Virus record (IMG/VR): IMGVR_UViG_2706795344_000001
Coordinates: 32,001-96,000 of that record
Origin: a virus
Taxonomy: Duplodnaviria; Caudoviricetes
Reading direction: 5' to 3' (one strand)
DNA: 64,000 bases
Shown piece by piece: positions 15,171-64,000 of this stretch. Each line of letters starts with the position of its first letter. Position 1 is the first letter of the stretch. The translations under genes and the position numbers were made by a program. The notes below the pieces were generated by a model that had not been told where the DNA came from, made no database searches, and was given only the letters and a program-made list of their open reading frames with translations.

Positions 15171-15488
15171 CTGGTATTCAACAAACTCTTTTAAAGCATC
15201 CACAAAGAATGGTTGCATAATAAGTTGCACACACAAAGCTTCATCGAAGATTTTTCCGACATTGACATCTGTTTCAAATCCGATTTCTTCGAAATGTTGA
15301 TTGATACGTTTAGCAAAGACGTCACCATCTATATCTGGACAACACTTTTCCATGAACTCCTCAAGCTTTTCAGCGTAGACTGGGTTCTCAAATATATCCA
15401 GCAATGCCGATGGGTCACACCCCTTGAATTCATTAACACGGTCATCAATATATTGCTCAACCCGTTTATTGATCGTATCAAAGTCCAC
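15165..15488 (-). CDS. Hypothetical acidic protein
   Basis: ORF with RBS GGAGGTG, overlapping the upstream kinase gene. Confidence 0.6.
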   Translation of the reverse strand: MDFDTINKRVEQYIDDRVNEFKGCDPSALLDIFENPVYAEKLEEFMEKCCPDIDGDVFAKRINQHFEEIGFETDVNVGKIFDEALCVQLIMQPFFVDALKEFVEYQK

Positions 15489-16113
15489 TGATCACCTCCT
15501 TCATATGGTTATTAATGCTCACAGAATCGCGCAGGAGCGCTTTTAACACATTTAATGGTGAATCATAGCCAAAGCCGAGAAAGTCCCTTAAATAAGCCTC
15601 TGAGAACTCTTTATGATTATGTCGCAACAATCCTCCCCAAGCATACTGCATGGTTAAGCTCTCATCTCTACTCTGTTCTCGACCAAAGCTTTGGTATTTA
15701 ACTTCAGGGTCATGTTTGAGTACGATGTTCAATGTGTTACCTTCGCCCACCATTTCTTCATGATTTTTGTAGAAGCGATCACAATGATCATCCCAATGAG
15801 TCCAAGGCATGTCAGGTTTTACACTCTTATTGGATAGGCCATAGAACTTTCCTGTCAGTACAGGAGAATCTGTGATAACTACATCACAACCAGAATTCAA
15901 ATATAGACCAAGTAGACGTGCTTGCTCACCTGTTATTGTCCATTGGTTTACGCTATTTGTACTTAAACCATTTAGGATAGGTTCCTTAATCCACTCACGA
16001 CAGTATTCAGCATTAATACCTTTTAATTTAAGTGCGTTGGCAAGTGTAGTAGCTAATATAGTTTTTCCTGTACCTGCTGCACCAAAAATGTTTATCAATA
16101 ATGGCTTCTTCAT
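15478..16113 (-). CDS. NadR/Ttd14-like (AAA_28) P-loop kinase
   Basis: INIFGAAGTGKT Walker A, E..RE, DVVITDSP and R.QS..E motifs. Confidence 0.75.
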   Translation of the reverse strand: MKKPLLINIFGAAGTGKTILATTLANALKLKGINAEYCREWIKEPILNGLSTNSVNQWTITGEQARLLGLYLNSGCDVVITDSPVLTGKFYGLSNKSVKPDMPWTHWDDHCDRFYKNHEEMVGEGNTLNIVLKHDPEVKYQSFGREQSRDESLTMQYAWGGLLRHNHKEFSEAYLRDFLGFGYDSPLNVLKALLRDSVSINNHMKEVISGL

Positions 16114-18640: not shown

Positions 18641-19111
18641 ATGTCGTGGAATAATCTATCTGATAGATGGAAGGATTACTTTATTAAGGAGCTACATTTA
18701 ATTGCATCAATGTCAAGAGATGTGGATACAAAGGTTGGGGCGATTATTATTGATACAGAGAATAAAGTTGTCATAGCTAAAGGCTACAACGATTTACCAA
18801 GAGGTGTCTATCATCACATTGCTAGAAACTCTAGGCCACTTAAATATAAATACACAACACATGCTGAAATGAATGCACTCTTCAATGCCTTATATCAAGG
18901 TGCTAGTGTTAAGGGTGCAACAATGTTGTGTACGTTATTCTCATGTTCTACATGTTGTGGTGGTGTGATTCAGAGTGGTATCAAAGAGTTTGTTTGCCCT
19001 GAACCTGATTGGGAGTACCCATCTTTAAAAGAAGATTTCCCTGTAACAAGTCAGATGTATGATGAAGCACTTGTACATGTAATATTTGAGGAGAAGTTAT
19101 CGAATGTCTAA
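18641..19111 (+). CDS. dCMP deaminase
   Basis: TKVGA, GYN, HAEMNA and CSTC zinc motifs. Confidence 0.9.
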   Translation: MSWNNLSDRWKDYFIKELHLIASMSRDVDTKVGAIIIDTENKVVIAKGYNDLPRGVYHHIARNSRPLKYKYTTHAEMNALFNALYQGASVKGATMLCTLFSCSTCCGGVIQSGIKEFVCPEPDWEYPSLKEDFPVTSQMYDEALVHVIFEEKLSNV

Positions 19112-21245: not shown

Positions 21246-21611
21246 ATGGAAAAGAATTTTGGTAATTTAATTTTAGATTTATTTAAATTAAACACAGGAG
21301 ATGAGGTAATTCGTTTAGCAGATTTTAGAATGCTGTCTGCTGAAGGTGTTGAATATAATTTTTTCTTTGGCAATGTTTATAACTTTGAGATTAATCTTGC
21401 ACACTACAGTAAAGAGTTTGTGAAAGGTCAAGGGGATGTACATAACTTTGTGTTATCTGTAACACAGGGTGCTATTAAAAAGTCTTCAATAATTTCTCAT
21501 GAAGCTTTAAATATCGTTGGTGAACAAGGTCTCATTAAAACTATTAAACGTATTTGTAATGAAATTATTTCTGAGCGTTTGAATGAAGTGTTAGGGGGTG
21601 ATAGTGTCTAA
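21246..21611 (+). CDS. Hypothetical protein
   Basis: Strong RBS AGGAGG. Confidence 0.65.
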   Translation: MEKNFGNLILDLFKLNTGDEVIRLADFRMLSAEGVEYNFFFGNVYNFEINLAHYSKEFVKGQGDVHNFVLSVTQGAIKKSSIISHEALNIVGEQGLIKTIKRICNEIISERLNEVLGGDSV

Positions 21612-23667
21612 GGATTTAAAACTACGTTTTTTCGCAAGTGACTTGGAGGCAACTGGTTTAATCTGGCAGATGATACAACAAGGTGATGATAAGAAGCTTC
21701 ATAACTTTTGTGGTATTGAAATCAAGGATAGTAAGTTTCAAGATATCCAGATGCATCATCCACATACAAAGAAAGCAATTCAACGATTGCAAGATTGGAT
21801 TGATGACCCTGAAAATGTTTTCATTATTCATAATGCCTATACATATGATTTACATGCATTAGAATTATTTGGGTTAGATACATCTAAGATGAAGATTATT
21901 GATACTCTACCGTTATCTTGGTACTTGCATCACGATCGTGAACGTCATGGTCTTGAGTGGTGGGGTGAAGAGTTTGGTGTACCTAAACCGAAGATCGACA
22001 ATTGGGAAGACTTAACACAAGAAGAGTATGATCATCGTGTTATAGAGGACTGTAAGATTCAACGATTGTTATGGATGAAGTTGTGTACTGAATTTGGAGA
22101 GATGTATGGAGTTAAGACTCAAACAGAAGTATATAACCATCCAGCATTTAAGTACATTCAATTTAAGTCTAAGCAATTGGCTGAGCAGATGCGTAATAAG
22201 TGGAAATTTAATGTAGAGGGTGGTAAGAAACTCTATGAGGAATTAGAAGCTGAAATTGCGACACGTACAGAAACATTGAAGTCTGTAATGCCAAAAGTAC
22301 CTAAGTATGCTAAACGTAAGCCACCAGCTAAACCTTATAAAGCTAATGGTGAACTTTCGGCTACAGGTGAGAAATGGAAAAAACTTTGTGAAGATAATGG
22401 GTATGATTTTAATACTTATCGAGGTGAGATTCAGGAACTTACTAAGTATGAGGAACCAAACCCTGCATCATCACAACAGAAGAAAGCTTGGTTGACCAGC
22501 TTAGGTTGGGAGCCAATGACCTTTGAATACAAGCGTCAGCCAGATGGTACTACACGTGCTATCCCTCAGATTAATAAGAAAAACTCTGGTGGATTGGTAT
22601 GTGAGTCTGTATCTTTACTTGCTGAAGAAGTTCCAGAGGTTAAAGCTTTAGAAGGTCTGGGAATTGTTAACCATCGATTTAGTATGGTTAAAGGTTGGTT
22701 AGAGAACCATGAAGACGGGTATTTGATTGCACAAGCTGGTGGATTCACAAACACATTACGTTTGAAACACCGTATTCTTGTGAACATGCCTTCTGGTCGT
22801 GTACCTTATGGTTTGGCTATCCGTGGATTGCTTGAGGCACGTGAAGGATGTACATTAACTGGTGCAGACTTAAGTTCCTTGGAGAACCGTTGGAAGTTCC
22901 ACCATCAGTACCCTTTAGACCCTGATTATGTAGAGGCACAGATGTCAGATGACTTTGACCCTCACTTAGCACTAGCTGAGATGGCAGGGTTATTAGATGC
23001 TGACGATGTAAACTTCTATAAATTATTTGAAAGTGGTTACACCATCCCAGAAGAGTGTTATACTGATGAGCTTAAGCGACGTATTGCTAAAGCTGAGAAG
23101 GATGAAGACTGGAAGCACTCAGAGATTAAGCGTATTGCTAAAATCCGTGGTGTTGGTAAAAATGGTAACTATGCTTTACAATATGGTTCTGGTGTTGAGA
23201 CTTTGGCCCGTACTGCTAAGATTACAAGAAAAGAAGCTACAAAGCTTAAGGCTGGTTATGATAAACTTAACTGGACTATTCCTGTTATCGCTAAAGCACA
23301 GCGTGTTAAGGATTTCAAACATGGACGATTCTTGTACAATCGTGAGAATAAGTTCTGGTATCCATTAAAGGCTGAGAAAGATAGATTCTCTACTCTTATT
23401 CAAGGTAGTGGTTCTTACACTCTCGACTTGTGGATTATGAAGTTCTTCCAGATTCGCAAGAAAGCTATTGAATCAGGCCGTATTAAGTTTGCTAGATTGT
23501 TGGGTACATTCCACGATGAATTGATCTTAGAGCACCGTACAGAGGATTCTGAGGCTATTCGTGAGATGTTAAAGGAAGCTATTGACTTAGTTAATAAATC
23601 ATTAAAGCTTTCTGTAGACTTGACATGTGATATCAAACAAGGTAATACTTACTCGGAGATACATTAA
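21598..23667 (+). CDS. DNA polymerase family A (T7-like, Tyr at the position equivalent to PolI 762) with 3'-5' exonuclease
   Basis: Exonuclease DLEATG, HNAYTYD and EDC; polymerase ADLSSLE (motif A), RGVGKNGNYALQYG (motif B) and FHDE (motif C). Confidence 0.95.
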   Translation: MIVSKDLKLRFFASDLEATGLIWQMIQQGDDKKLHNFCGIEIKDSKFQDIQMHHPHTKKAIQRLQDWIDDPENVFIIHNAYTYDLHALELFGLDTSKMKIIDTLPLSWYLHHDRERHGLEWWGEEFGVPKPKIDNWEDLTQEEYDHRVIEDCKIQRLLWMKLCTEFGEMYGVKTQTEVYNHPAFKYIQFKSKQLAEQMRNKWKFNVEGGKKLYEELEAEIATRTETLKSVMPKVPKYAKRKPPAKPYKANGELSATGEKWKKLCEDNGYDFNTYRGEIQELTKYEEPNPASSQQKKAWLTSLGWEPMTFEYKRQPDGTTRAIPQINKKNSGGLVCESVSLLAEEVPEVKALEGLGIVNHRFSMVKGWLENHEDGYLIAQAGGFTNTLRLKHRILVNMPSGRVPYGLAIRGLLEAREGCTLTGADLSSLENRWKFHHQYPLDPDYVEAQMSDDFDPHLALAEMAGLLDADDVNFYKLFESGYTIPEECYTDELKRRIAKAEKDEDWKHSEIKRIAKIRGVGKNGNYALQYGSGVETLARTAKITRKEATKLKAGYDKLNWTIPVIAKAQRVKDFKHGRFLYNRENKFWYPLKAEKDRFSTLIQGSGSYTLDLWIMKFFQIRKKAIESGRIKFARLLGTFHDELILEHRTEDSEAIREMLKEAIDLVNKSLKLSVDLTCDIKQGNTYSEIH

Positions 23668-30754: not shown

Positions 30755-30780
30755 AATCCAGCCTTAGTGCTGGATTTTTT
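30755..30780 (+). terminator. Intrinsic terminator
   Basis: ATCCAGC-cttagt-GCTGGAT followed by a T run. Confidence 0.7.
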
Positions 30781-30799
30781 GTTATATAGGAGTAGTAAA

Positions 30800-33706
30800 T
30801 TGTCAGGAAAATATACATCAATCTTAATGCAAGAATCGAACTCATATGTGGATAGATTCCCTCAGTTCGTGGATGCAATTACATTTCAAAAGGAGGATTT
30901 GTTCTGGACAGAGAAAGAGATCAAAGTTGAAAAAGATGAACAGGACTTAAAACATAATATCCTACATTCGCAAGTTCACGCTTTGATGTTCAACCAACGA
31001 CTCTTTACTAAATATGAAGATGTCATTGGTAATGATTACTGGATTGGTGTTGTACATAAGAAGTATAAGTGTCATGAAATTCGAAGACTGGCTATTTGTT
31101 TTGCTGATGTCGAGAATAACATTCACTTCCCATTCTATCGTCGTGTGAACGAAGTTTTAGGGACCCATAACGATGAATTCTATGATGCATTTGAGACAGA
31201 CCCTATTTTAGTGGAACGTGTTAAATTCATGCAGGAATTGGTGGCATCGAAAGATACACTGGCATCTATGGGTGGATTTGCTTTCATGGAAGGTGCAGTA
31301 TTATTTACAGCATTTGCTATGATCAAGTCTCTCGGTGTTAAAGGTCAGTCATTTATGCCTAATTTGATTTCAGGTATTAACATGTCTATCCTTGACGAGA
31401 ACTTTCACATGCAGACGGCTTGTGAGATTTTCCGTACACAGTTAGAACTTGAGAATCGTACAGAGGAGGATGTTCGTAAGCTTAAAGAGGCCATCTATAA
31501 GCATGCTGAGAATGTCTTGGAACATGAATACATTATCATTAATGCTATGTTAGCTGAAGGTGATATTCCTTTTGCTTCTAAGAAGGAGTTGCAAGCATTT
31601 GCTCGTCACCGTGTTAACGTTGTATTAACAACTTTAGGTTTCCCTGAGTTAGCCACATTTGATGAGACAGATGATACTATCTCTGAGTGGTTCTATGAAT
31701 TCATGGGTGGGTATACAAGTAACGATAACTTCTATTCTCGTGGTCGTAACTACAAGAAAGAGTTCTCTGCTGTTGACTATGACATTATCTCAAATGGTGC
31801 TGTAGAGGAAGTACTTGCACAAATCCCTGATGAGTATTTAGACCAAATGGGTATTGACTTGAATCGTAAGTTCGAAAAGACTTTAGAGGAAGAGTTAGAG
31901 GCCAAACGTCCTAAACGTAAGAAGCACAACAATGCGGAAGATGCTTTATATGTTCCAGATTACAGTCGTGAACGTAAAGAGATGCAAGCACGTGGTGAAG
32001 CTCCTGAGTGGATGGCAACGGCTGGATGGCAGTTATTCAAGAAGAAATATCTTAACGGTGACTGTAAGACTCCAAAAGACCAGTACATGCGTATTGCTAA
32101 GTGTTTAGGGCAGTATGCACCTGAAGTTTACCCTTCTTGGTGGAATACTATTCCATATTGGGCTGGTTTGACATGGGAAGAGGCATTCTTCAAAATCATG
32201 TGGGATGGTTTCTTAAGTCCTTCAACTCCTGTACTTTCAAACACAGGTACAGATTTTGGTATGTCGGTATCATGCTCTGGTGCTGTAACTGAAGATAGTG
32301 TTGCTGGGTTCTATGACGCTCGTAAGATCAATGCATTACTTTCGAAAGAAGGTTTTGGTACTACAATTGATTTAGATCGTATCCGTGGACGTGGCATGCC
32401 AATGAAGGGTGGTATTGCCAATGGTGCTCTTCCTGTAGCTCGTATGTTCCGTCAGGATGCTTTAGATATCAGCCAAGGCTCACAACGTCGTGGTGCTACA
32501 GCTTGGTATTACAGTGTGGAAGGTTTGGACTTTGATGAATTATTACACTTCTTAGAGTATGATACGGATGGCAATAATGGTGGTTGGAAAATTACTAATG
32601 AGCTTCTTAACCGTGTCTTAATTGGTGATACATTAGCTATTGAACGTTTGAATAAAATCTTAGCTGTTCGACACCATGTAGGTTTGGGTTACGAATTATT
32701 TATCGATAAGGTGAATGCTCGTCGTCCTCAGATGTACAAAGATCGTGGTATGATGGTTTCTACAAGTAACCTATGTACTGAGATTACATTGTTTAGTGAC
32801 CCTGAACATACATTTACATGTGTATTGTCAAGTGAGAACTTAGTTCGATTTGATGAGCGTCCAGAGAACTTGGCCTTTGTTGGTACAGTGTTCCTTGACT
32901 GTGTGGCTGAAGACTTTATTCAGAAAGGTTCTAAGATCAAAGGTCTTGAAACTGCTGTTGAGTTTACTAAGAAAGGCCGTGCTCTTGGTTATGGTACAAT
33001 GGGCTTTGCTTCATACTTAATGCGTAACGACATCGAGTATGGTTCAATGGAATCATTCTGGAAGAATAAGAAGATTTATTCTACCCTTGAAGCAGAAACA
33101 AAAGCAGCTTCTAAATGGTTGGCTAAAGTTCTTGGTGAACCAGAGTGGTGTGAAGGTTATGGTGTTCGTAATACACACTTAATGGCTATCGCTCCTACTA
33201 AGTCTACAGGCTTATTAATGGGTGGTGACTCTGAGGGTATTAATGTTCCGTCAGCATTTGTATTTGCACAAGATACTCCAGCTGGAACTGTATTCCGTAT
33301 TGACCCATCATTCTTGATGTTGTTGAAACGTAAAGGTCTATATAAAATTGACCCTGAAACAAAACGATTAACACCTGAAACTGAGGCGTTATTAAAACGT
33401 GTGTCAGACAACCTTGGTAGTGTGCAAACATTAACAGATGTCTTGACAGACAAAGAACGTGCTGTATTTAAAACAGCTTATGAGATTAACCAGTACCGTC
33501 ATATTGATTTGTGTGCTCAACGTCAAGAACATATTGACCAAGCTCAATCAATCAACTTATTCATTGCGAATATGTCGGCTCAGGAAATCGCTAAGTTGTA
33601 TATGTATGCTGCACTTAACCCTAATATCTTGAGTTTGTATTACCATACTGGTATTCGTGACTCTCGTATTGGGGAGAATAAAAACGAATGTGAATCTTGT
33701 CAATAA
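30800..33706 (+). CDS. nrdB-nrdA: Class I ribonucleotide reductase, beta (NrdB) and alpha (NrdA) subunits fused in one ORF
   Basis: N-terminal half: FWTEKE, YE, ENNIHFPFY, EGAVLF, DENFH. C-terminal half: SPSTP, VSC, SNLCTEI, TCVLSS, APT, QAQSINL, LYY and terminal CESC. TTG start at 30800 after AGGAG. Confidence 0.9.
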   Translation: MSGKYTSILMQESNSYVDRFPQFVDAITFQKEDLFWTEKEIKVEKDEQDLKHNILHSQVHALMFNQRLFTKYEDVIGNDYWIGVVHKKYKCHEIRRLAICFADVENNIHFPFYRRVNEVLGTHNDEFYDAFETDPILVERVKFMQELVASKDTLASMGGFAFMEGAVLFTAFAMIKSLGVKGQSFMPNLISGINMSILDENFHMQTACEIFRTQLELENRTEEDVRKLKEAIYKHAENVLEHEYIIINAMLAEGDIPFASKKELQAFARHRVNVVLTTLGFPELATFDETDDTISEWFYEFMGGYTSNDNFYSRGRNYKKEFSAVDYDIISNGAVEEVLAQIPDEYLDQMGIDLNRKFEKTLEEELEAKRPKRKKHNNAEDALYVPDYSRERKEMQARGEAPEWMATAGWQLFKKKYLNGDCKTPKDQYMRIAKCLGQYAPEVYPSWWNTIPYWAGLTWEEAFFKIMWDGFLSPSTPVLSNTGTDFGMSVSCSGAVTEDSVAGFYDARKINALLSKEGFGTTIDLDRIRGRGMPMKGGIANGALPVARMFRQDALDISQGSQRRGATAWYYSVEGLDFDELLHFLEYDTDGNNGGWKITNELLNRVLIGDTLAIERLNKILAVRHHVGLGYELFIDKVNARRPQMYKDRGMMVSTSNLCTEITLFSDPEHTFTCVLSSENLVRFDERPENLAFVGTVFLDCVAEDFIQKGSKIKGLETAVEFTKKGRALGYGTMGFASYLMRNDIEYGSMESFWKNKKIYSTLEAETKAASKWLAKVLGEPEWCEGYGVRNTHLMAIAPTKSTGLLMGGDSEGINVPSAFVFAQDTPAGTVFRIDPSFLMLLKRKGLYKIDPETKRLTPETEALLKRVSDNLGSVQTLTDVLTDKERAVFKTAYEINQYRHIDLCAQRQEHIDQAQSINLFIANMSAQEIAKLYMYAALNPNILSLYYHTGIRDSRIGENKNECESCQ

Positions 33707-47183: not shown

Positions 47184-48137
47184 ATGGGTTTAAAAGAAGG
47201 TAAGCGTCCAATTGTGATAAAACAAACTAAGCCACAAATTACCATGGCTGGTACTGAGACGGTTCTAACAGTTAAGAAATATGCTCGTGAGATATTTTAC
47301 AATAATCTGTGGAATGAGTATCCTGAAGCGATTAAAAATCGTGGTGCTGTGTTTATTGGAGATACACCAGTAGTTTCTCCTATGGACAAATGCTTTAACT
47401 ACAAAGAGAATGGTGTTGGATTAGATGTTAGTGATGAAACCCATGTATATGTTTACCGTAAGGTGAATGGTTACATGGCTAATTTAACATACATCAATGG
47501 TATTGGTTGGATTATCTCAACTACTGGTGATGCAATGATTGTTGGGAATAAGACTGACAATAAGTATCTAAATATGGCCCAAGAATATTTTGAGCGTTTT
47601 GATGCTTATGCATATTATTTGGAACTGTCACAAGCTGTTGATTCTCGTATTGTTGAGTTGAAAGATCAGCCACCTTTGACAATCACCTTTGAGATTACAC
47701 ACCCAGATGACCCTCATATTGTGGAAGAGTTGTATGGTGTTTACGCTTTGTGTTATCAGATCGGTGATAATCAGCGACCATGTTTTAACATTTATACAGT
47801 GAAACATTGTGTTGTTCCTGTACGTGGAAAGCTTATGACATTTGGTCAAGCTAAAGCAGAGCTTCAAGAATGTAAACATGAAGGGTTTATGGTGTATAAC
47901 ATTAATCATAAATTATTATTCAAATTGAAGTCTCCTTATTACTTGGCAAAGAAATGGGTTCAGCGTCGTAGTGCAGACCATTTGTGGAGTCCTCTGTATA
48001 AGAGTCGTATGGAAGAGGAATACTACCCTATTGTTGTACGTATTCGTGAGAAGTTGACTAAGGAAGAGTGGGATGCTTTGGATGAGAAAGGTAAGTCAGC
48101 TTTATTCTTAGAAGTGTATAAGGAGTTGTTAGGTTAA
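47184..48137 (+). CDS. RNA ligase, Rnl1-like
   Basis: RG.V, KCFNY.E, RKVNG (motif I), FEI.HP, EGFMV and KLKSPYY. Confidence 0.8.
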   Translation: MGLKEGKRPIVIKQTKPQITMAGTETVLTVKKYAREIFYNNLWNEYPEAIKNRGAVFIGDTPVVSPMDKCFNYKENGVGLDVSDETHVYVYRKVNGYMANLTYINGIGWIISTTGDAMIVGNKTDNKYLNMAQEYFERFDAYAYYLELSQAVDSRIVELKDQPPLTITFEITHPDDPHIVEELYGVYALCYQIGDNQRPCFNIYTVKHCVVPVRGKLMTFGQAKAELQECKHEGFMVYNINHKLLFKLKSPYYLAKKWVQRRSADHLWSPLYKSRMEEEYYPIVVRIREKLTKEEWDALDEKGKSALFLEVYKELLG

Positions 48138-48550
48138 TGAATAATAAGATACTATGGTTTGTACGTGGTGTCTCAGGAGCTGGAAAGAGTACCGTAGCAA
48201 AAGTGTTACGGGAACAGCTACCATTTGGTTGTGGAACTGAGGCTGATGACTTTCGTTATATCGATGGTCGGTATGCATGGGAGGAGGTCCCAAATTATAT
48301 TGCACACCGTAAATGTTTTGATACTACAAAAGAATACTTGATAGATGGTCGTCAAAATGTGGTAGTATCCAATACATCGACAAGAAGTAAAGATGTTCGC
48401 AAGTATAAGAAGCTTGCAGAAGAATTTGGATATATGTTTATCTCTATTGTGGTTGAGAATTACCATGAGACAGGTAATACACACAATGTACCATATGCTA
48501 CACTTGTTGATATGGAAAATAAACTACGTGGTAGTATTAAATTAAAGTGA
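48137..48550 (+). CDS. Polynucleotide kinase-like P-loop kinase (AAA_33)
   Basis: VRGVSGAGKST, EADD, AH..C, VVVSNT and HNVP. Confidence 0.8.
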   Translation: MNNKILWFVRGVSGAGKSTVAKVLREQLPFGCGTEADDFRYIDGRYAWEEVPNYIAHRKCFDTTKEYLIDGRQNVVVSNTSTRSKDVRKYKKLAEEFGYMFISIVVENYHETGNTHNVPYATLVDMENKLRGSIKLK

Positions 48551-57865: not shown

Positions 57866-58625
57866 TATAGGTTTTCCAAGAAGACACCCTGCTTTGGAGT
57901 CTATGTCGGAGTCTGTTATGAGGTGTGAAGAGTATATGAAGGCTACTTCTGTGGGTTTAGAAAGCTTAAGAGAGGATGCAATCTTCTCTGGAGAGTATGT
58001 GCCTAGAGATACTAGAGGTATCCTTAAGTTTATTCGTGAAAGGGGTTACAATCTCAAGGAAGCCTCTTACGATGTAAGAACGGGGATGATAACCATTAGG
58101 ACTAAGGATTCTAAAGAGGTGTTGTGTAGTCCTGAAACTTTCAAGGGTGAGGATGAGGCAACAAAGCTGGACATCCTTTACAGACTCACTACTGGACACA
58201 GAGGGCCTATATTGGGTTACAAAGCCTTTTTGGCTTCAGGGCACTTTGACTTGGCAAGGTCTGACTCAAGTTCAAACTATGTAGAGTTACGGCAAAGACT
58301 TAGTGGAAATTGGATATCATTAGACAATAGTGTCATCAGAAATATAGGTATTAGGGCGGTGATTGACAATGTTAAATTCAACGAGTCCCCTAGTCAGGTT
58401 AGGAGAAATATTGAAGATCAGGCATTAGAGGCTGAGATGCGTAGGACTAGTAGTGTAAAAGCTTCAGCTCAAGCTCTTACATCATTACATACCACTGTGA
58501 GTAAGTTTAATCGTAACACTGGTTTATGGGAAGAAAGAGATAGTTCTTTGGAGGAGCCTGAATCTGAGGCTATTAGTAGTCGTAATGCATTGTTAGAAGA
58601 GATGCGTAAGAAATATTTGAAATAG
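57834..58625 (+). CDS. Hypothetical protein
   Basis: 263 aa ORF; RBS GAGG. Confidence 0.6.
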   Translation: MRVEKVEDSFNIGFPRRHPALESMSESVMRCEEYMKATSVGLESLREDAIFSGEYVPRDTRGILKFIRERGYNLKEASYDVRTGMITIRTKDSKEVLCSPETFKGEDEATKLDILYRLTTGHRGPILGYKAFLASGHFDLARSDSSSNYVELRQRLSGNWISLDNSVIRNIGIRAVIDNVKFNESPSQVRRNIEDQALEAEMRRTSSVKASAQALTSLHTTVSKFNRNTGLWEERDSSLEEPESEAISSRNALLEEMRKKYLK

Positions 58626-58628
58626 TTG

Positions 58629-58657
58629 TTGACATTAAAATTGTATGTCAGTATTAT
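58629..58657 (+). promoter_or_regulatory. Sigma70-type promoter
   Basis: TTGACA-17-TATTAT. Confidence 0.65.
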
Positions 58658-58685
58658 AGGTTCATAACTTAAGAGGAGTAGTAAA

Positions 58686-59384
58686 ATGAGTTGGTTCAAA
58701 AAATTATTTACAATTGGTGTAAACACAGTTAACGAAAAAGGTGAGCAAGCTGTTGTAAATTTTGTTGACATCTCTCGTGAAGGTAAAGCAATTGTTGCTA
58801 AGCGTAAAAAAGATATTGAAGATTCAAAAAAGTCTATCTTGGAGTCTAACACGACTGTAAAGAAGCATGAGAATCGTATCAAACGGAATGAAGAATCATT
58901 ACGTGATTGGAACTTGATTGCAGAGCAAGCTGTTAAAGCTGGCAATGACGGTGATGCACTAAAAGCGGTAACTCAAATTGAGATTATCGAAAGTGAAAAT
59001 GAGACTCTTAAGTCTGTGGTCGAAGATTTAAAACCTTTAATTGCTAAGCGTAAGGCTCAGTTAGATCAGATGGAAATCGATGTGTTCAAGATTGAGCATG
59101 AGATTGAACGTTTAAGCATCCTTCATGAATCTCTTAAAGATCGTGAGAAAGCAACAGGTAAAGCGGAGGGCAGTTTGACTAATGCATTTAACGTAGAAGA
59201 CCTACGAAACATTGTTGACAATGCCAAAGCTCGTGTTGAAGCTAAAGAGGAGTTAGGTTCCAACGATTTACAGGACTTGACTAAGAAGTATAGCTCTACA
59301 CAAATCTCTGCTGAGGAGCGATTAGCTAAGCTGAAAGAGAAGATTAATGGCCCACAAGAAGGTGAGAAAAAGCGTAGTAAATAA
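58686..59384 (+). CDS. PspA/IM30 (ESCRT-III-like) family protein
   Basis: Amphipathic MSWFKKLF; long coiled coil; W...AEQAVKAGNDGDALKA; C-terminal AEERLAKLK. Confidence 0.75.
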   Translation: MSWFKKLFTIGVNTVNEKGEQAVVNFVDISREGKAIVAKRKKDIEDSKKSILESNTTVKKHENRIKRNEESLRDWNLIAEQAVKAGNDGDALKAVTQIEIIESENETLKSVVEDLKPLIAKRKAQLDQMEIDVFKIEHEIERLSILHESLKDREKATGKAEGSLTNAFNVEDLRNIVDNAKARVEAKEELGSNDLQDLTKKYSSTQISAEERLAKLKEKINGPQEGEKKRSK

Positions 59385-59389
59385 TTTAT

Positions 59390-59419
59390 AAGGCAGCATC
59401 GAAAGGTGTTGCCTTTTTT
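59390..59419 (+). terminator. Intrinsic terminator
   Basis: AGGCAGCATC-gaaa-GGTGTTGCCT-TTTTT. Confidence 0.8.
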
Positions 59420-59467
59420 ATTGTCTTGTGAAATAATATCTACATATTAAATCTGAGGTAAGTTTAA

Positions 59468-59917
59468 ATGTTTCTAGAAAAATTTCGATCTGGAGTGAGA
59501 TTCATTACAGTAATTGTTGTGGTTATGGCTCTATCAATAGCTTATGTAGTTGGTGCATATAACTTCTATATGGACATGACTAGTGACCCTGTTTATGAAA
59601 ACCAAATCATTGCAAGTGGTGTAGTATCTGATAAATACGATGAGGCTTATAGCTGTGGCAGTAAAGGGCGTTACACATGTTTTAATAGATACTTAGTTGT
59701 GAATGGTAAAGCTGTTATTGTGAGTGATAACCTATATACAGAAAAGCGTCTAGGTGAGCATATTAGCTTAAGTCAAAACACTCTGGTTGATGTTGGATAT
59801 GTGGTGAAACCTCTTGGTGGGGTCTGCATAGTTGTATTCTGGGTACTAAGCTTATGTGGGGTTATAATGTTCTTTATTTGGGTATTTTCTGAAGAGAAGA
59901 AGGAAGGTGATAAATGA
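59468..59917 (+). CDS. Two-TM membrane protein
   Basis: N- and C-terminal hydrophobic helices. Confidence 0.6.
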   Translation: MFLEKFRSGVRFITVIVVVMALSIAYVVGAYNFYMDMTSDPVYENQIIASGVVSDKYDEAYSCGSKGRYTCFNRYLVVNGKAVIVSDNLYTEKRLGEHISLSQNTLVDVGYVVKPLGGVCIVVFWVLSLCGVIMFFIWVFSEEKKEGDK

Positions 59918-60240
59918 TCACAGTTGTACTACCTGAAGTAGAAGAGATATTGAAAGCTCTTAAAGAAGAGTATCGATTTGAACGTCTGGAAGGTTGTTGG
60001 ATTAAGTCTGTAGATATTAAACCAAAAAATATTCATATAACTGGATTTATTATATGGCACTGGACTCAAAAAGATTTTGGAAACCATGAAGCTAAAGTAT
60101 CTATGGTTGAGTTTGATGTATATGATACAGGCTCTTGTTTTGATGGAACTGTTGTTGACATTGGTTGTGCTTTTGATATGATATCGGTTGAAGATGCTAA
60201 GCAACGTATGGGTGAATTCGTGGAGAGACTTGATGATTGA
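59914..60240 (+). CDS. Hypothetical protein
   Basis: ATGA-coupled ORF. Confidence 0.55.
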   Translation: MITVVLPEVEEILKALKEEYRFERLEGCWIKSVDIKPKNIHITGFIIWHWTQKDFGNHEAKVSMVEFDVYDTGSCFDGTVVDIGCAFDMISVEDAKQRMGEFVERLDD

Positions 60241-60547
60241 TTTCGACAAGATGGTTCAGGATATGTTGACTATTCCTGATGAAGATTTGAAGGAGTGGGT
60301 AGATAAAATCGAAGGTAGTATGGCTTTACATATTGCCACATACCCTGATGAGGTTGTATGGGAGACTATGAATCCAACAAATCGAGGGGCAGCGTATAGT
60401 AATGTATTGCTTAAAGACTTACATGATAAGTATGTTGTAAAAGAGAAGACTCAGTTAAAGTTTTCGATTGAGCAAGCTATTAAACACAATGAGAGTCAGT
60501 TCTTTATTAAAGCTGTATATGAGAGAAAAAGTGATGTCCCAAACTAA
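60233..60547 (+). CDS. Hypothetical protein
   Basis: RBS GGAG; overlapping coupling. Confidence 0.55.
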   Translation: MIDFDKMVQDMLTIPDEDLKEWVDKIEGSMALHIATYPDEVVWETMNPTNRGAAYSNVLLKDLHDKYVVKEKTQLKFSIEQAIKHNESQFFIKAVYERKSDVPN

Positions 60548-60995
60548 ACTTAAATTAGACCTTACACGTAAATTTGGTGGATTAGCAAAAGCTTTTGATT
60601 TCCTGATGGACATGGATGTCTGGGGCAGAAGTCGTAAGTATGAAGTGGTTGATGGTGAATTAACTGTTAGCGACAAAGGGTACACGTATTACGAGCTGAG
60701 AGACGCTATACGGGAGCTTTTGGAGAAAGAGGTACGAATGTACCAAGCGCCAGATAGAATTCAATATCGAAGCGCTGATGAGTATCCAGAGGTATATTCA
60801 GAGAACGTTAGGCTAGATGGCATCACAACATTCTCAAAGTCTCCAAAACTTCTATTGAAGTATCGCCATCGTGGTGAAGTAAACTATGTTACAGGTTATA
60901 TGATTAATTATCATGATGAACGACCTAATGTATATCACCTTGACGGACATAATGGAGACTGGCATAATACTGTGGAAGGTTGGATTTATTGTTGA
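60534..60995 (+). CDS. Hypothetical protein
   Basis: C-terminal V.GW.Y pattern of DUF551-like phage proteins. Confidence 0.55.
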   Translation: MSQTKLKLDLTRKFGGLAKAFDFLMDMDVWGRSRKYEVVDGELTVSDKGYTYYELRDAIRELLEKEVRMYQAPDRIQYRSADEYPEVYSENVRLDGITTFSKSPKLLLKYRHRGEVNYVTGYMINYHDERPNVYHLDGHNGDWHNTVEGWIYC

Positions 60996-61002
60996 GGTAT
61001 TC

Positions 61003-61179
61003 ATGTATACATTAGTTTTAACAATTACGATGTTTGGTTGGATTTGGGATGATGTCCGAACTGTTAGTGTTGATGGCTTTAAGAGTTTATCAAACTGTCA
61101 GAATGCTGGAGAGCAGCTTAAGAAAGAGCACACCAAAAACTTTATAGGTAAAGCTACATATACTTGTGTTAAGAGATAG
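61003..61179 (+). CDS. Small protein with hydrophobic N-terminus
   Basis: RBS GAGG; F.S...C..AG.......CVK. Confidence 0.55.
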   Translation: MYTLVLTITMFGWIWDDVRTVSVDGFKSLSNCQNAGEQLKKEHTKNFIGKATYTCVKR

Positions 61180-61299
61180 ATATTGGAGGTATAAATGGTC
61201 ATTTATTCATTCAGTACAGAAGAGGCAAAGCGTTGCCCTGAGTGTCTTGGCTATACTCATATGCATAAACCTTGGTGTAATAATTGGTAGGAGTTTAAT

Positions 61300-61539
61300 A
61301 TGAAATTATATTTAGTGGTAAATGAACAATCTGGTGAATGTGTTGGTTTTAATGACTTAGCTGATGCACAACATGCAGCTACAGGGAAGAACTTTAGTAG
61401 TGATCAGCGACAAGGTTGGTACAGTACTTTGGGTTCAGAGTTCCGTGAAAGTGTTCTTGAAAGTGGTGATGAGCAGTTACGTATCGCTGAGGTGGAAATT
61501 GATTTGGCTACATTAAAAAATGCAGAGGACTTTAAATGA
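61300..61539 (+). CDS. Hypothetical protein
   Basis: RBS AGGAG. Confidence 0.6.
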   Translation: MKLYLVVNEQSGECVGFNDLADAQHAATGKNFSSDQRQGWYSTLGSEFRESVLESGDEQLRIAEVEIDLATLKNAEDFK

Positions 61540-61886
61540 AAAAGTTAGTTAAAGAATTCCATGAACATAGCTTAAAGCAGCGTAATACCAAGCGTACAAG
61601 TAAGATGCTCTGCGATGCTGCATTCTACATCATGAATAGCAAAAGCAGTAGAGAAGCTATTATTGTGGGAGCTACTGAGCATCATTTAGCTGAGATGAAG
61701 GCTACAGCAAATCGACTTTTCAATTCTCACATAGCATGTTCTATGGTATTCGTGACAAGAAGTGCCTTAGATGACAAAGTTAAAGGTAGAAATGAGAAAA
61801 CTTACAAGGTGTTCTATGACCACTTTGCTTTAGAGTCAGAGATTGCTAAACTGTTAGTAGAGTACACCAAGTACGAGGAGAACTAA
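61536..61886 (+). CDS. Miniature degenerate terminase/P-loop ATPase-like protein (paralogue 1)
   Basis: QRNTKRT (RxxGKT-like), IIVGAT...A and KG...KVFYDH (Walker B-like). Confidence 0.45.
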   Translation: MKKLVKEFHEHSLKQRNTKRTSKMLCDAAFYIMNSKSSREAIIVGATEHHLAEMKATANRLFNSHIACSMVFVTRSALDDKVKGRNEKTYKVFYDHFALESEIAKLLVEYTKYEEN

Positions 61887-62267
61887 GTGGAAAGAATACC
61901 TAAAGATATGAAAGAGGCATCGGAACATTTTAGGGCTATTAGTTCTTTTAAACATAGAATTAATCGAAGTGTTCGAATGCTTTGTCAGGCATTGTTCCAT
62001 GTGTCAAATGGCTATTCTGGAAATCATTCTATAGTTGTTGCTTTGGATGAAGATCATAAGAAACAGCTAGAAGATAAAGCTAAGGAGATGTTCTCTACTG
62101 AGGTACTTAAACATATTGGATTCATTAGTTACGAAAAGTATAAGAAGTTTAATAGGGAAGGTGAGGTGGTAGGTTTAAAATATTTTATCGACCCTGCTTG
62201 CCTTGAAGATGATATCGCTGTACTATTAAAGAAGTGGGAACAGTACGATGACCCAAGAGATTATTAA
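61887..62267 (+). CDS. Miniature degenerate terminase/P-loop ATPase-like protein (paralogue 2)
   Basis: Aligns with 61536-61886: R...RS.RMLC, IVVA, A..MF, F.D...LE..IA.LL.....Y. Confidence 0.45.
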   Translation: MERIPKDMKEASEHFRAISSFKHRINRSVRMLCQALFHVSNGYSGNHSIVVALDEDHKKQLEDKAKEMFSTEVLKHIGFISYEKYKKFNREGEVVGLKYFIDPACLEDDIAVLLKKWEQYDDPRDY

Positions 62268-62278
62268 CGGAGACTGAT

Positions 62279-62785
62279 ATGTCACACTTTGGTATAGACC
62301 CAAGAGCAGCTAAAGAATTTTGGAATGAGAAAACCAAAGAGCCATTCGATTTTGACTGGAAAGAAATCAATGCAGATATGGCTGCTGCTGTAGTACACAA
62401 CCTAAGAGTATGTGAGGCGTTCCTATTTGGACGTTTCCCTAGCGCTGAGGAAGCTAAGGAACATATCGATGTGTGGGCAGAGTGGCAAGAGATACGTCGT
62501 AATAACCCTGTAAGCTTCTTCAAGCCACGAAAGATGCCAAACGTTGGAACTATAGGGTATCCAGAAGAACCTTGCTTAAACGAGCTTACACGCTTAATTA
62601 GAGGTAGTATTGCTAAGGACGAACTGTGTATGGTGGTTGGTAAACCTACAAATGCATCTACTGTACGTCCTGAAGTGTTGGAGTTTTATAAGAGTCGTCG
62701 TAGTAGTAATCCTATATTGCATGTAGCTCTTGAAGACACTAAGCCTTATCTAATTGATAGGTACTTAGGAACCTCAATAAAATAA
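62279..62785 (+). CDS. Protein carrying an EF-Tu-like NVGTIG motif and a dead DnaB-helicase H1/H1a fragment
   Basis: Ungapped register with this phage's own helicase segment LRDLDD...STGKSV...FSLED. Confidence 0.5.
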   Translation: MSHFGIDPRAAKEFWNEKTKEPFDFDWKEINADMAAAVVHNLRVCEAFLFGRFPSAEEAKEHIDVWAEWQEIRRNNPVSFFKPRKMPNVGTIGYPEEPCLNELTRLIRGSIAKDELCMVVGKPTNASTVRPEVLEFYKSRRSSNPILHVALEDTKPYLIDRYLGTSIK

Positions 62786-62801
62786 TCTTGGAGATTTTGA
62801 T

Positions 62802-63002
62802 ATGAGTCATGACTTACACACAAGAACAGCTATGTGGATGTTTGATGTTGGGGCTAGTGAAGTGACGGAAACTCAGAGACGTGGAGCTAAAGCATATAAC
62901 TATGCTAAACAGTATGGAGCTAGTAATACAACAGCTACTGTTGAAGCCATCAAAGCTATGCGAGAGGGTAAGTGTGAAGTGTACAGGAATGAGGGAGCTT
63001 AG
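62802..63002 (+). CDS. Stand-alone DNA polymerase A fingers/O-helix (motif B) mini-protein
   Basis: DLH..TA...F.V...EVT..QRR.AKA.NY...YG.S; RBS GGAG. Confidence 0.7.
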   Translation: MSHDLHTRTAMWMFDVGASEVTETQRRGAKAYNYAKQYGASNTTATVEAIKAMREGKCEVYRNEGA

Positions 63003-63014
63003 GCTCTCTTTTTT
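62992..63014 (+). terminator. Intrinsic terminator closing the decoy-like cluster
   Basis: AGGGAGC-ttag-GCTCTCT-TTTTT. Confidence 0.75.
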
Positions 63015-63019
63015 ATTGT

Positions 63020-63100
63020 CCAGATATTCCCTAGATATTTCCAGATATTCCAGCAAATTGCAAAAAGTTTTGAAAAGTTTTTGAAAAATTTTGAATTTTC
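63020..63100. repeat. Short tandem repeats (AGATATT x3) and phased A/T tracts (AAAA..TTTTG x3)
   Basis: ccagatattccctagatatttccagatattcc; aaaaagttttgaaaagtttttgaaaaattttg. Confidence 0.6.
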
Positions 63101-63101
63101 C

Positions 63102-63130
63102 TTGACACCTATGTATGTTATAAATATAAT
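63102..63130 (+). promoter_or_regulatory. Consensus sigma70 promoter
   Basis: TTGACA-17-TATAAT with upstream A/T tracts. Confidence 0.8.
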
Positions 63131-63136
63131 GAAATC

Positions 63137-63354
63137 TCTTTAATGTAGTAAGTTAATAAGTTGATTTAAGATTGGTGGCATTGCAGTGCCAAGTATATAG
63201 GAGTGTTGGGTATGTGAACTTATGTGGTAGATAGGTGTGACACTATGGAAGATTGGTAGACGAAGTGCTATACATTTCCAGCATCTTGATGGAGGTTCAT
63301 GAAAGTGTCTAATGAGCTGTGAGAAATTGCCCATGCTTTGTCGTGGGCTTTTTT
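63137..63354 (+). ncRNA. Candidate ~220 nt small transcript containing only minigenes
   Basis: Bounded by a consensus promoter and the terminator GCCCATG-ctttgt-CGTGGGC-TTTTTT; ATG-initiated ORFs are at most 7 codons. Confidence 0.45.
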
Positions 63355-63703
63355 GTGCCTGTCTGTCTGGCCTGAAAAAATTTTTAGAGGGCATGATGAC
63401 TTTTGAAAATTAGAGTGAGATTACAGGAATATCCATTTTTACAACTTGGGTTAAATTTAAACACCTTGGATTTTGAAGAAACTGAAAAGTTAGAGTTTGT
63501 CAATAGGTATTAACAAAAAATATTGAATTATTTTTATTGACTTTAATTATCATCTATTGTATTCACATGCGCCCGCTCTTTATAAACGTGACCTTGTTTT
63601 GTTGTGGTGATAGTATGAAAGGTATAAAGAGACATTCCAAATGATTATTTAGAACTATAAATTTATTTAATTCATGCACTTATAAAATTTATATAAAATT
63701 TTC

Positions 63704-63731
63704 TTGCATTTATTTTTAGATTGTTTACTAT
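63704..63731 (+). promoter_or_regulatory. Putative early promoter
   Basis: TTGCAT-16-TACTAT upstream of the 63771 ORF. Confidence 0.4.
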
Positions 63732-63770
63732 GTGCTTATCGAAACGAAACAAGCCTAGAAAGGTGATGAG

Positions 63771-64000
63771 ATGGAACAAATTACATTAGATTTATTTAGC
63801 TTTGAAGAACTCTCTAATGAAGCTCAACAAGTGGCAATTGAAGCAGTCCGTAACAGTGAATATTATTTATCTCATGATTGGTATGATTCTACAAAAGAAG
63901 ATTTTCACCAAATCTTAAACATTATCGGCTTTTATGATGTTAAGAGTCAATTTTCTGGTTTTAATTCTCAAGGTGATGGGGCGAGTTTTTCAGCTAACTA
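63771..64000 (+). CDS. Early-region protein, F.ELS..A...DW...FSGF.SQGDGA family (3' truncated)
   Basis: RBS AAGGTG; MEQITLDLFSFEELSNEAQQ...FSGFNSQGDGASF; this family is often loosely labelled antitoxin-like. Confidence 0.65.
   Translation, partial: MEQITLDLFSFEELSNEAQQVAIEAVRNSEYYLSHDWYDSTKEDFHQILNIIGFYDVKSQFSGFNSQGDGASFSAN

Follow-up and report, generated by a model that had tools for sequence, protein, structure and literature searches.

A small-gene cluster in a Saclayvirus-type Acinetobacter phage with a predicted catalytically dead homologue of polymerase fingers and a probable helicase fragment

The question raised by this locus is whether four adjacent small ORFs are dead copies of fragments of core phage proteins and, if so, what such fragments might be used for. 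The initial annotation took them for an array of non-activating decoys, two reproducing segments of a terminase-type ATPase, one of the replicative helicase, and one of the DNA polymerase. Their source is a Saclayvirus-type Acinetobacter myophage of ~105 kb, part of which, a stretch of 64,000 nucleotides (positions 32,001 to 96,000 of IMG/VR record IMGVR_UViG_2706795344_000001), was analyzed and is referred to here as the window. Saclayvirus-type phages are therapy candidates against A. baumannii, so the roles of their accessory genes are of practical value.

Organization and conservation of the locus

The four ORFs (O1 to O4) and the gene preceding them (O0) close a run of small accessory genes at its 3′ end, beside a promoter-rich intergenic region. 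Sigma-70-like promoters are present in the run that holds O1–O4. The features of the locus, and the two full-length genes with which it is compared, are listed below.

61300..61539, + strand: O0, 79 aa, matching phrog_18211 (E 8e-33), part of the same packed run
61536-61886, + strand: O1, 116 aa, a phrog_5437 member
61887-62267, + strand: O2, 126 aa, a phrog_5437 member, with a GTG start immediately 3′ of the O1 stop
62279-62785, + strand: O3, 168 aa, orphan family
62543..62776, + strand: O3 residues 89-166, probable dead fragment of a DnaB/SF4 RecA-type ATPase
62802-63002, + strand: O4, 66 aa, stand-alone fragment of family-A polymerase fingers
62808..62933, + strand: O4 residues 3-44, predicted N-helix, O-helix, and motif B, from Pfam, Bst Pol I, and invariant columns
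62991-63010, + strand: intrinsic terminator-like hairpin followed by a T-run, with the O4 stop codon within its loop and stem
63102-63130: perfect TTGACA-17-TATAAT promoter, 3′ of the terminator-like hairpin
19086-21185: gp4-like primase-helicase, elsewhere in the window
21598-23667: full-length PolA, elsewhere in the window

The O0 stop and the O1 start overlap (ATGA), and each of O1–O4 is preceded by a GGAG/GAGGA Shine-Dalgarno site 7–13 nt 5′ of its start. These sites, the gene coordinates, and the hairpin at 62991-63010 confirm the original description of four adjacent small ORFs with intact ribosome-binding sites closed by one terminator. It was equally correct that full-length polymerase and helicase genes lie elsewhere in the window, the complete polymerase gene being 40 kb away from O4. 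In related phages, O4-type genes end with identical ...GA residues. Rfam and tRNA scans of the O1–O4 region gave no match.

The O1–O4 cluster was found in 16 related phage records, and it is syntenic, with all reading frames intact, in all relatives; a search of IMG/VR added one further locus only. Comparison of dN/dS across related phages, which had been suggested as a check, revealed purifying selection on O1–O4, with overall values of about 0.1–0.3 except for O3. By gene, dN/dS is about 0.1 for O1, 0.05–0.29 for O2, 0.13–0.70 for O3, and 0.07–0.27 for O4 (dS up to about 2), the O4 values applying to the common allele class only, whereas the source phage carries a divergent class, the KissB type. 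For O0, the corresponding range is 0.07–0.29. Because no relative has a broken frame and dN/dS falls well short of 1, O1–O4 are not random pseudogene debris, as had been argued from the outset, and, as judged from these sequence comparisons, they are real protein-coding genes.

O1 and O2, tandem members of phrog_5437

O1 and O2 had been thought to resemble a terminase-like ATPase core, and no such likeness emerged in any test. Both proteins match phrog_5437 over its full length (positions 1–115 of 115), with E values of 2.8e-36 (O1) and 2.5e-37 (O2), and they are tandem paralogues (29% identity, E 8e-13). O2 is present in 16/16 related records. O1 is an extra paralogue found in some relatives only, with a DNA match only in Liucustia and Aci05 and a very divergent copy in D22. 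No terminase family in Pfam (such as Terminase_6N, PF03237), PHROGs, or NCBIfam matched O1 or O2, and none appeared at E ≤ 10 in 11 family members. When the O1/O2 family was aligned using hhalign, the comparison with the phage's own TerL gave P 0.63, and that with all 99 ORFs of the window returned no helicase or terminase. Similarly, tblastn at E ≤ 10 found only the 16 related phage records. There is no GxxxxGK[ST] in either protein, and the AlphaFold model of O2 (pLDDT 77.5) displays a three-stranded parallel α/β fold without a Walker A, none of its three strands preceding a would-be P-loop.

Profile searches of the PDB with O1/O2 gave only weak BTB-domain matches (E ≥ 0.24), Foldseek with the O2 model returned nothing below E 0.3 in the PDB, and the protein atlas gave one ResIII lead at 0.89 alongside unnamed viral clusters. 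As assessed by VIA-align, the best matches of the O2 model are RecA-like domains of SF1/SF2 helicases, with Z scores (5.6–7.9) that fall within the tool's stated noise range, and there is no terminase among the 50 matches listed. On the same model, O2 appears to resemble uncharacterized ~110-aa proteins of Acinetobacter phages Aristophanes and Acibel007 and of Pseudomonas phage phiB1_1 (TM 0.58–0.79). With no terminase signal in profile, tblastn, or own-TerL searches, and no terminase among the fold matches listed, we rejected O1 and O2 as terminase fragments; on the predicted fold, they are an autonomous small α/β family. Because the terminase link is rejected, so is the picture of a four-member decoy array, and because O1 and O2 are not terminase-like, the argument that invoked terminase sensing by Avs1–3 has no footing. 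What is left of the idea that each ORF copies a fragment of a core protein concerns O4 and probably O3.

O4 and O3 as fragments of replication enzymes

The assignment of O4 to the fingers region of PolA stands. Pfam DNA_pol_A (PF00476) matches O4 at 35.0 bits (cut-off 34.3) over profile positions 184–225 of 381, and it is matched by 8/8 O4 alleles examined. In the PDB, O4 matches residues 383–421 of Bst Pol I (O-helix region), and in NCBIfam it is matched by DNA polymerase I (E 3.6e-8), the best models being bacterial DNA polymerase I. Residues 3–44 align gaplessly to the N and O helices of the fingers and to motif B of family-A DNA polymerases (Pol I/Klenow type), with DxH, F, VT, R-x3-K, N, Y, and S conserved. 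The residues that are invariant in 10 O4 sequences from three allele classes, including R26, K30, and Y38, are family-wide conserved PolA positions, and O4 retains the residues aligning with the dNTP-contacting R754, K758, and Y766. The motif B/O-helix pattern of the family (R-x3-K ... F/Y ... Y-G) is thus present; within it, the Gly after the phenylalanine is Ala in every O4, and that Phe position itself varies. On the other hand, O4 proteins, which are 55–76 residues in length, differ from the family in having no palm, thumb, or exonuclease domain, and palm motifs A and C with their catalytic aspartates are absent. Without a palm, O4 cannot polymerize. On these alignments, O4 is a true stand-alone fragment homologue of family-A polymerase fingers, predicted to be catalytically dead and exapted.

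PolA pieces encoded as separate genes have been described in other mobile elements, namely the exo/pol split in S-SBP1-like T7-type phages and CCPol of staphylococcal elements (PMC10201439). O4 resembles these split or truncated polymerases in being a PolA piece with a gene of its own, but they are whole domains that still polymerize, together or with a partner, whereas O4 amounts to one helical hairpin. Pieces of core replication enzymes that persist under selection as separate genes seldom attract notice, and surveys discard short sequences, the PolA census having dropped those under 350 aa (PMC10201439).

Sequence comparison led us to reject O4 as a duplicate of the phage's own polymerase. 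The longest stretch that O4 shares with the motif-B coding DNA of that polymerase is a 9-nt run, and because identity there is confined to this run, there is no sign of gene conversion between the two. No complementary polymerase piece was found in the genome, nor were other PolA or DnaB remnants at E ≤ 10. O4 alleles form sharply divergent classes without detectable DNA similarity. Sharply divergent alleles also occur in a PspA-like gene nearby (dN 0.58).

DNA encoding motif B is well known as a target of homing, which raises the possibility that O4 is a relic brought in as a passenger by homing endonucleases or introns; a piece of a foreign polA exon would have arrived with a mobile endonuclease and persisted as an ORF, its protein having no role connected with where it came from. 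Aci05 carries a free-standing HNH endonuclease gene at the exact junction of O4 and the intergenic region, and the relatives of this endonuclease are HNH homing endonucleases of many phages. However, only one phage, represented by two of the 16 related records, carries this endonuclease, and the endonuclease family shows no special link to polA. Moreover, O4 is under purifying selection, and PolA functional residues are conserved across alleles without detectable DNA similarity. Because a neutral relic would not keep these residues, a neutral origin is disfavored, and we consider a relic of homing traffic very improbable.

For O3, the initial annotation had proposed a DnaB segment (H1-H1a) plus an EF-Tu strand. 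O3 is an orphan family confined to Saclayvirus-type phages, whose members are hypervariable toward the N terminus (nt 47 to nt ~176–219 of the gene) and whose N-terminal 88 residues are unrelated to DnaB. Residues 89–166 would probably span a pre-Walker-A turn, strand 1, a destroyed P-loop, helix 1, and an H1a-like ALED. As assessed by hhalign, O3 matches a 9-sequence DnaB profile with P 8e-4, above all 200 column shuffles, and the DnaB segment with P 0.0011 over 74 columns; BLASTP against Vieuvirus DnaB gives a pairwise E of 1e-6. An unbiased tblastn finds a replicative helicase at E 0.6 database-wide, and the sense-strand matches outside the family with a named product are replicative helicases only. 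Matches in the Escherichia phage BF9 group from the same type of search were rejected as spurious, being antisense to annotated genes (BF9 checked). Pfam KaiC matches one of 11 family members (E 0.027), and a gapless scan of O3 along the phage's own helicase has its best register at residue 393, with a score of p about 0.10 versus shuffles. These four weak and partly overlapping tests (DnaB profile, tblastn, Pfam KaiC, and own-helicase scan) point to the same register, and the O3-DnaB score rises once profiles replace single sequences. Because hhalign of O3 against the own helicase as a single sequence picks a different, non-significant register, the register on that helicase comes from the gapless scan alone.

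Over residues 109–163, O3 aligns gaplessly to residues 193–247 of Vieuvirus DnaB, with an identity of about 24% over 55 residues. The likeness to the DnaB/SF4 RecA core consists of a hydrophobic strand, the P-loop position, a helix, and an (A/S)-L/A-E-(D/M) strand, the ALED of O3 aligning gaplessly with SAEM/SLEM of DnaB (H1a strand; own-helicase register score p about 0.10). The "EF-Tu strand," which we take to be a six-residue likeness, falls inside the hhalign-aligned DnaB stretch upstream of Walker A. Unlike DnaB/SF4 helicases, O3 has a broken Walker A, with GKPTNAST in place of GxxxxGK[ST] where Vieuvirus DnaB reads GRPGSGKS, and the P-loop lysine and serine/threonine are gone in 11/11 family members (NAS for GKS/T). 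In addition, O3 stops about 15 residues past the H1a-like strand and lacks Walker B (H2), H3, H4, the arginine finger, and the DNA loops.

These features could be read in another way, in which the four genes share no logic and are unrelated and lineage-specific, only O4 deriving from a core enzyme and the helicase likeness of O3 being a chance one between strand-loop-helix-strand units. O3 is below every family cut-off, and it has no Pfam match to DnaB_C (PF03796) at E ≤ 1. A six-frame genome search for DnaB at E ≤ 10 recovered the phage's own helicase only, and not O3. A PDB profile search with O3 gave nothing below E 0.3, the protein atlas no usable match, and AlphaFold an unusable model (pLDDT 44). 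Searching 1.84 billion proteins recovered nothing but the O3 family and P0024, which was rejected as a relative because it is an artefact, a translated tandem repeat. As a single sequence, O3 comes fourth among the 99 proteins of the window in score against the DnaB profile, just exceeding the 95th percentile, and DnaB had been picked by the initial annotation after the sequence was seen. Chance is nevertheless at odds with the single register chosen by four different tests, with the climb in score from single sequences to profiles, and with the restriction of named sense-strand tblastn matches outside the family to replicative helicases. We regard the absence of any shared logic as rather unlikely, and we think it likely that the C-terminal third of O3 is a dead DnaB-type RecA-core piece, from Walker A to H1a. 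The DnaB assignment of O3 is probable: the four tests agree on the register, but no family cut-off is reached and Walker A is destroyed.

Possible roles of O3 and O4

By these comparisons, O4 is, and O3 probably is, a catalytically inactive piece of a core replication enzyme, exapted and not debris. That an O-helix hairpin, and probably a helicase P-loop segment, are kept as genes across a phage genus points to use for surface, not activity. Both O4 and O3 resemble bacterial Pol I and DnaB-type proteins more than the phage's own enzymes. The best explanation in our view is that O3 and O4 are exapted dead fragments of replication enzymes acting as mimics, with O1 and O2 autonomous. O3 and O4 would be competitive mimics, each offering a conserved replication-enzyme surface to its usual partner, without enzyme activity. 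The partner might be a host sensor of polymerase/helicase folds (Avs19/Avs20-like) or a replisome of DnaB/Pol I type belonging to the host or to resident prophages. The descriptive part of this explanation is highly likely. As a whole it is tentative, its chances falling somewhat short of even, and mimicry as the mode of action of O3 and O4, which we infer, is the more doubtful element. Sensors that enclose entire domains may not be occupied by fragments as short as 40–75 residues.

An effect on the replisome could also be that of dominant-negative poisons, O3 capping or disrupting DnaB-type hexamers, whether from the host or from phages that are resident or co-infecting, and O4 disturbing Pol I-type enzymes. 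The benefit would be host shut-off or inter-phage competition, and the phage's own gp4-like helicase and divergent polymerase would be spared. Consistent with this, among helicases O3 comes closest to the DnaB of temperate Acinetobacter phages (Vieuvirus) rather than to the phage's own enzyme, and the best models for O4 are those of bacterial DNA polymerase I, not the phage's own polymerase. In addition, it is textbook knowledge that the subunits of DnaB hexamers contact one another through the N-terminal edge of the RecA core and the linker before it. However, O3 shares no more than about 24% identity with any DnaB, over 55 residues, and we know of no way in which an isolated O-helix hairpin could poison Pol I. 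We consider poisoning an unlikely role.

If the partners that O3 and O4 mimic for were instead defense sensors, O4 would bind an Avs19-type and O3 an Avs20-type STAND sensor without allowing oligomerization, leaving the real polymerase and primase-helicase undetected. A 2026 paper reports that Avs19 senses the family-A polymerase core and Avs20 the RecA-type ATPase domain of primase-helicase and RecA, both independently of catalysis (PMC13581612), so the two fragment types correspond to two published classes of Avs trigger, and the decoy idea is testable for O4 and O3. The two genes are adjacent, under purifying selection, and located among small accessory genes in a block with sigma-70-type promoters, and they display sharply divergent allele classes. 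Such classes are frequent in arms-race genes, but they are not special to O4, the nearby PspA-like gene being similar. Furthermore, Avs19 activation required the whole core polymerase domain and Avs interfaces are extended (PMC13581612), so a 40-residue hairpin may not bind, and O1 and O2 are outside the scheme. We consider sensor decoys of this kind decidedly improbable.

Comparison with known anti-Avs proteins bears on the same point. O3 and O4 resemble phage anti-defense proteins that act by mimicry or direct blocking, among them the anti-Avs proteins ORF55 and ORF83, in being small phage accessory genes that vary among close relatives, the likeness in binding without activity being a proposal only. 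The anti-Avs proteins in the accessible part of the EVADES preprint are enzymes or nucleotide binders (a ligase and an Smf-like nucleotide binder), not trigger fragments, whereas O3 and O4 are candidate trigger fragments. Were they to act on Avs sensors, they would constitute a new class of anti-defense protein, consisting of adjacent, minimal, dead trigger fragments serving as non-activating decoys, a prospect with the same low probability. The O3/O4 pair nonetheless offers a concrete and inexpensive means of testing whether a phage can blind pattern-recognition receptors by supplying parts of the pattern they recognize.

Finally, the order of O3 and O4, a helicase piece followed by a polymerase piece, mirrors that of the working primase-helicase and polymerase genes, which could be a coincidence. 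Polymerase and primase-helicase have been swapped repeatedly in the clade holding Saclayvirus, and the O3-O4 order fits the swapping of a polymerase-plus-helicase module reported for this wider clade (PMC11348598).

Layout and conservation of the gene cluster

The window covers bases 32001-96000 of a 104,906-bp virus record. Across much of the region, the window DNA is 81-89% identical to 16 records corresponding to 13 distinct phages. All are Acinetobacter myophages (genus Saclayvirus), among them Liucustia, Ab_121, Aci05, Aci01-1, CP14, P1, TAC1, and D22. The initial annotation described four adjacent small ORFs (O1-O4) as a candidate array of decoy fragments of core enzymes, with a working polymerase and helicase encoded elsewhere in the window. 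The ORFs, the hairpin that closes them, and both working enzymes are all present.

61536-61886, + strand: O1, ORF
61887-62267, + strand: O2, ORF
62279-62785, + strand: O3, ORF
62802-63002, + strand: O4, ORF
62991-63010: terminator-like hairpin, with the O4 stop inside it
63102-63130: sigma-70 consensus promoter (12/12, TTGACA-17-TATAAT) downstream of the hairpin, the sole 12/12 site in a scan of 58500-64000
19086-21185: primase-helicase, outside the cluster
21598-23667: divergent family-A polymerase, outside the cluster

Each of the four ORFs has a GGAG-type site 7-13 nt upstream of its start. O1 shares an ATGA overlap with O0, the 79-aa gene just upstream (61300-61539), and O2 starts at the base right after the O1 stop. 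The order O0-(O1)-O2-O3-O4-terminator-intergenic region is kept in every relative examined, O1 being found in only some of them, and the genes are annotated there as hypothetical proteins.

Codon alignments against seven relatives contained no internal stops and gave dN/dS values of ∼0.05-0.29 for O0, O1, and O2, and 0.13-0.70 for O3. For O4, dN/dS was 0.07-0.27 within the common allele class, with dS up to ∼2. O0-O4 are under purifying selection. Pseudogene debris, against which the initial annotation had already argued for O1-O4, is ruled out by intact frames and dN/dS well below 1.

The window also encodes a tape-measure gene, a UvrD-type helicase, NAPRTase, and what looks like a fused beta-alpha ribonucleotide reductase (30767-33706), a single 979-aa ORF in which a small-chain domain (residues 40-295) precedes the N and barrel domains of the large chain; the large terminase gene is located outside it. 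Past the cluster, the intergenic region 63003-63770 is 85-88% identical across seven relatives. A strong terminator (63329-63348) lies ∼200 nt past the 63102-63130 promoter, and the stretch at 63102-63354, which has no sizeable ORF and no match in Rfam, may be a small non-coding transcript. In Aci05, alone among the relatives, a free-standing HNH homing endonuclease gene (L002:4707-5273) separates the O4 orthologue from the conserved intergenic region, inserted precisely at their boundary. In CP14 (locus L004, OP585105.1), small ORFs around the cluster are labelled as T4-type products, arranged as in T4 (recombination endonuclease subunit, sliding clamp, clamp loader, translational repressor, DNA polymerase), which looks like shifted or mistaken annotation because the proteins are just 47-79 aa; the CP14 O4 orthologue has lost its stop, which extends the protein to 69 aa.

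O3 and O4 resemble segments of replication enzymes

O4 was proposed to be the fingers region of PolA, and profile and sequence searches agreed. Its match to Pfam DNA_pol_A spans positions 184-225 of the 381-position profile and, at 35.0 bits, exceeds the cut-off of 34.3; all eight O4 alleles tested matched PF00476. As assessed by PDB sequence search, residues 4-42 align gap-free with the N/O-helix region of Bst Pol I (383-421). Among NCBIfam models, the one for bacterial DNA polymerase I scores best (E 3.6e-8), and the PHROGs matches are polymerase families only. O4 is not a local duplicate of the phage's own polymerase, because the latter matches only around motif B (E 0.086).

The DNA of O4 found no blastn match in seven relatives, in which its flanks, including the non-coding downstream region, are 77-98% identical. 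The protein shares 37-45% identity with the relatives' counterparts, which are 55-69 aa long. Two database proteins, of which one is from phage KissB, match it at 95% and 82% identity. The PspA/IM30-like gene at 58686-59384 is likewise a very divergent allele in this phage (dN 0.58 to five relatives, among which dN is ∼0.01 in four cases), so that the replacement of entire gene alleles is common in the region and not special to O4. Ten O4 sequences representing three allele classes share, as invariant columns, D4, H6, F14, T22, R26, K30, Y32, N33, A35, Y38, S41, A45, and A49. By alignment, we take R26, K30, and Y38 to be Pol I R754, K758, and Y766 (E. coli numbering). Because a protein this small has no room for a palm, O4 cannot polymerise. 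The residues that persist between alleles saturated for synonymous change are exactly the enzyme's conserved fingers residues, which suggests that selection acts to keep the surface itself.

The O3 family is confined to Saclayvirus-type phages. Its N-terminal part is hypervariable and its C-terminal half well conserved; the hypervariable stretch (62325-62497, codons about 16-73) has no DNA match to relatives, and both gene ends are 85-98% identical in most of them (77-86% in D22 and P1). By hhalign, the family matched E. coli DnaB at P 0.035 and a 9-sequence DnaB profile at P 8e-4, with O3 109-166 on DnaB 213-271, from Walker A to H1a; the observed score was 32.3, against a maximum of 25.1 in 200 column shuffles. 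A Pfam KaiC/RecA-type model matched the phage P1 orthologue (residues 105-168 on profile positions 7-70, E 0.027). An untargeted tblastn search of 50,697 phage records with the C-terminal 89 residues matched, outside the family, the replicative DnaB helicase encoded by temperate Acinetobacter phages (∼27 records, E 0.6). Among the other weak matches, those in the BF9-type Escherichia phage group were spurious and antisense (BF9 checked), and the rest were single matches at E 2-5. Pairwise, O3 109-163 aligned with Vieuvirus-type DnaB 193-247 over 55 gapless residues (E 1e-6), GKPTNAST facing GRPGSGKS and VALED facing ISAEM, and hhalign lengthened the alignment to 74 columns (P 0.0011).

Other comparisons were less clear-cut. 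Scored against the DnaB profile as a single sequence, O3 came only fourth among the 99 window proteins, below true P-loop proteins. A gapless scan of the phage's own helicase peaked, among 633 registers, at residue 393, the RecA domain start by Pfam, with a score not above shuffles (p ∼0.10), and hhalign against that helicase picked another register. Targeted and untargeted tests, which are not independent of one another, converge on the DnaB RecA-core segment. This segment corresponds to the DnaB H1-H1a piece named in the initial annotation. Library searches with the window's O3 protein (including Pfam and PDB profile searches) gave no match; on the alignments above, we consider homology of the C-terminal segment to DnaB probable. 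If the homology is real, O3 cannot hydrolyse ATP, since the Walker A lysine is lost and the protein ends soon after H1a. The AlphaFold model of O3 was unusable (pLDDT 44). One database protein, P0024 (1285 aa), is a translated tandem DNA repeat; its E 7e-18 with the O3 profile came from the summing of 13 weak repeats and is an artefact, a pitfall to keep in mind with profile searches. Two small ORFs of 211 and 137 aa (15478-16113, - strand, and 48137-48550, + strand), whose N termini match the DnaB-profile Walker A position, are probably P-loop proteins.

O1 and O2 form a separate family

O1 and O2 are paralogues (29% identity, E 8e-13) and both match phrog_5437 across the whole profile. Their proposed identity as terminase-like ATPase fragments found no support: there is no glycine-rich loop, no terminase family matched at E ≤ 10, the phage's own TerL shows no likeness, and tblastn at E ≤ 10 found nothing outside the family. 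In the O2 model (pLDDT 77.5), two N-terminal helices precede three parallel strands that alternate with helices. Foldseek against the PDB gave no match. A wider structural search included SF1/SF2 helicase RecA-like domains among the matches listed, at Z 5.6-7.9, a range that the tool itself gives as typical of the top score when a model has no true match; no terminase was among the 50 matches listed. In a viral structure library, the matches were uncharacterised ∼110-aa proteins of Acinetobacter podophages and a Pseudomonas phage, which points to an autonomous small-protein family. The four-fragment array therefore shrinks to O4 and, probably, O3.

Possible origin and candidate role of the O3-O4 pair

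Two of the four genes, O3 and O4, are most likely dead replication-enzyme fragments kept by selection, and the pair is a real, unusual feature that offers a testable case. In a limited literature text search, no earlier account of a gene of this kind came up, the portion covered of a 268-protein anti-defence catalogue describes no trigger-fragment decoy, and a PolA census left out short sequences (PMC10201439). No other PolA or DnaB remnants were found elsewhere in the genome. The order of the pair, helicase piece then polymerase piece, mirrors that of the working primase-helicase and polymerase, and published work assigns Saclayvirus to a clade whose polymerase has been swapped repeatedly, once with the primase-helicase replaced as well (PMC11348598). 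It is thus reasonable to infer that O3-O4 is what is left of a displaced module or a foreign one, later exapted.

Because the sole conserved thing is a surface recognised by other molecules, we favour mimicry, in which O3 and O4 would bind without activity. The proposed decoy role would apply at most to these two proteins. One candidate partner would be an immune sensor similar to Avs19 or Avs20, which sense, respectively, family-A polymerases and the RecA-type ATPase of primase-helicase and RecA, in both cases independently of catalysis (PMC13581612). Another would be a replisome of DnaB or Pol I type, belonging either to the host or to resident prophages; O3 and O4 are closer to DnaB and Pol I-type proteins than to the phage's own enzymes.
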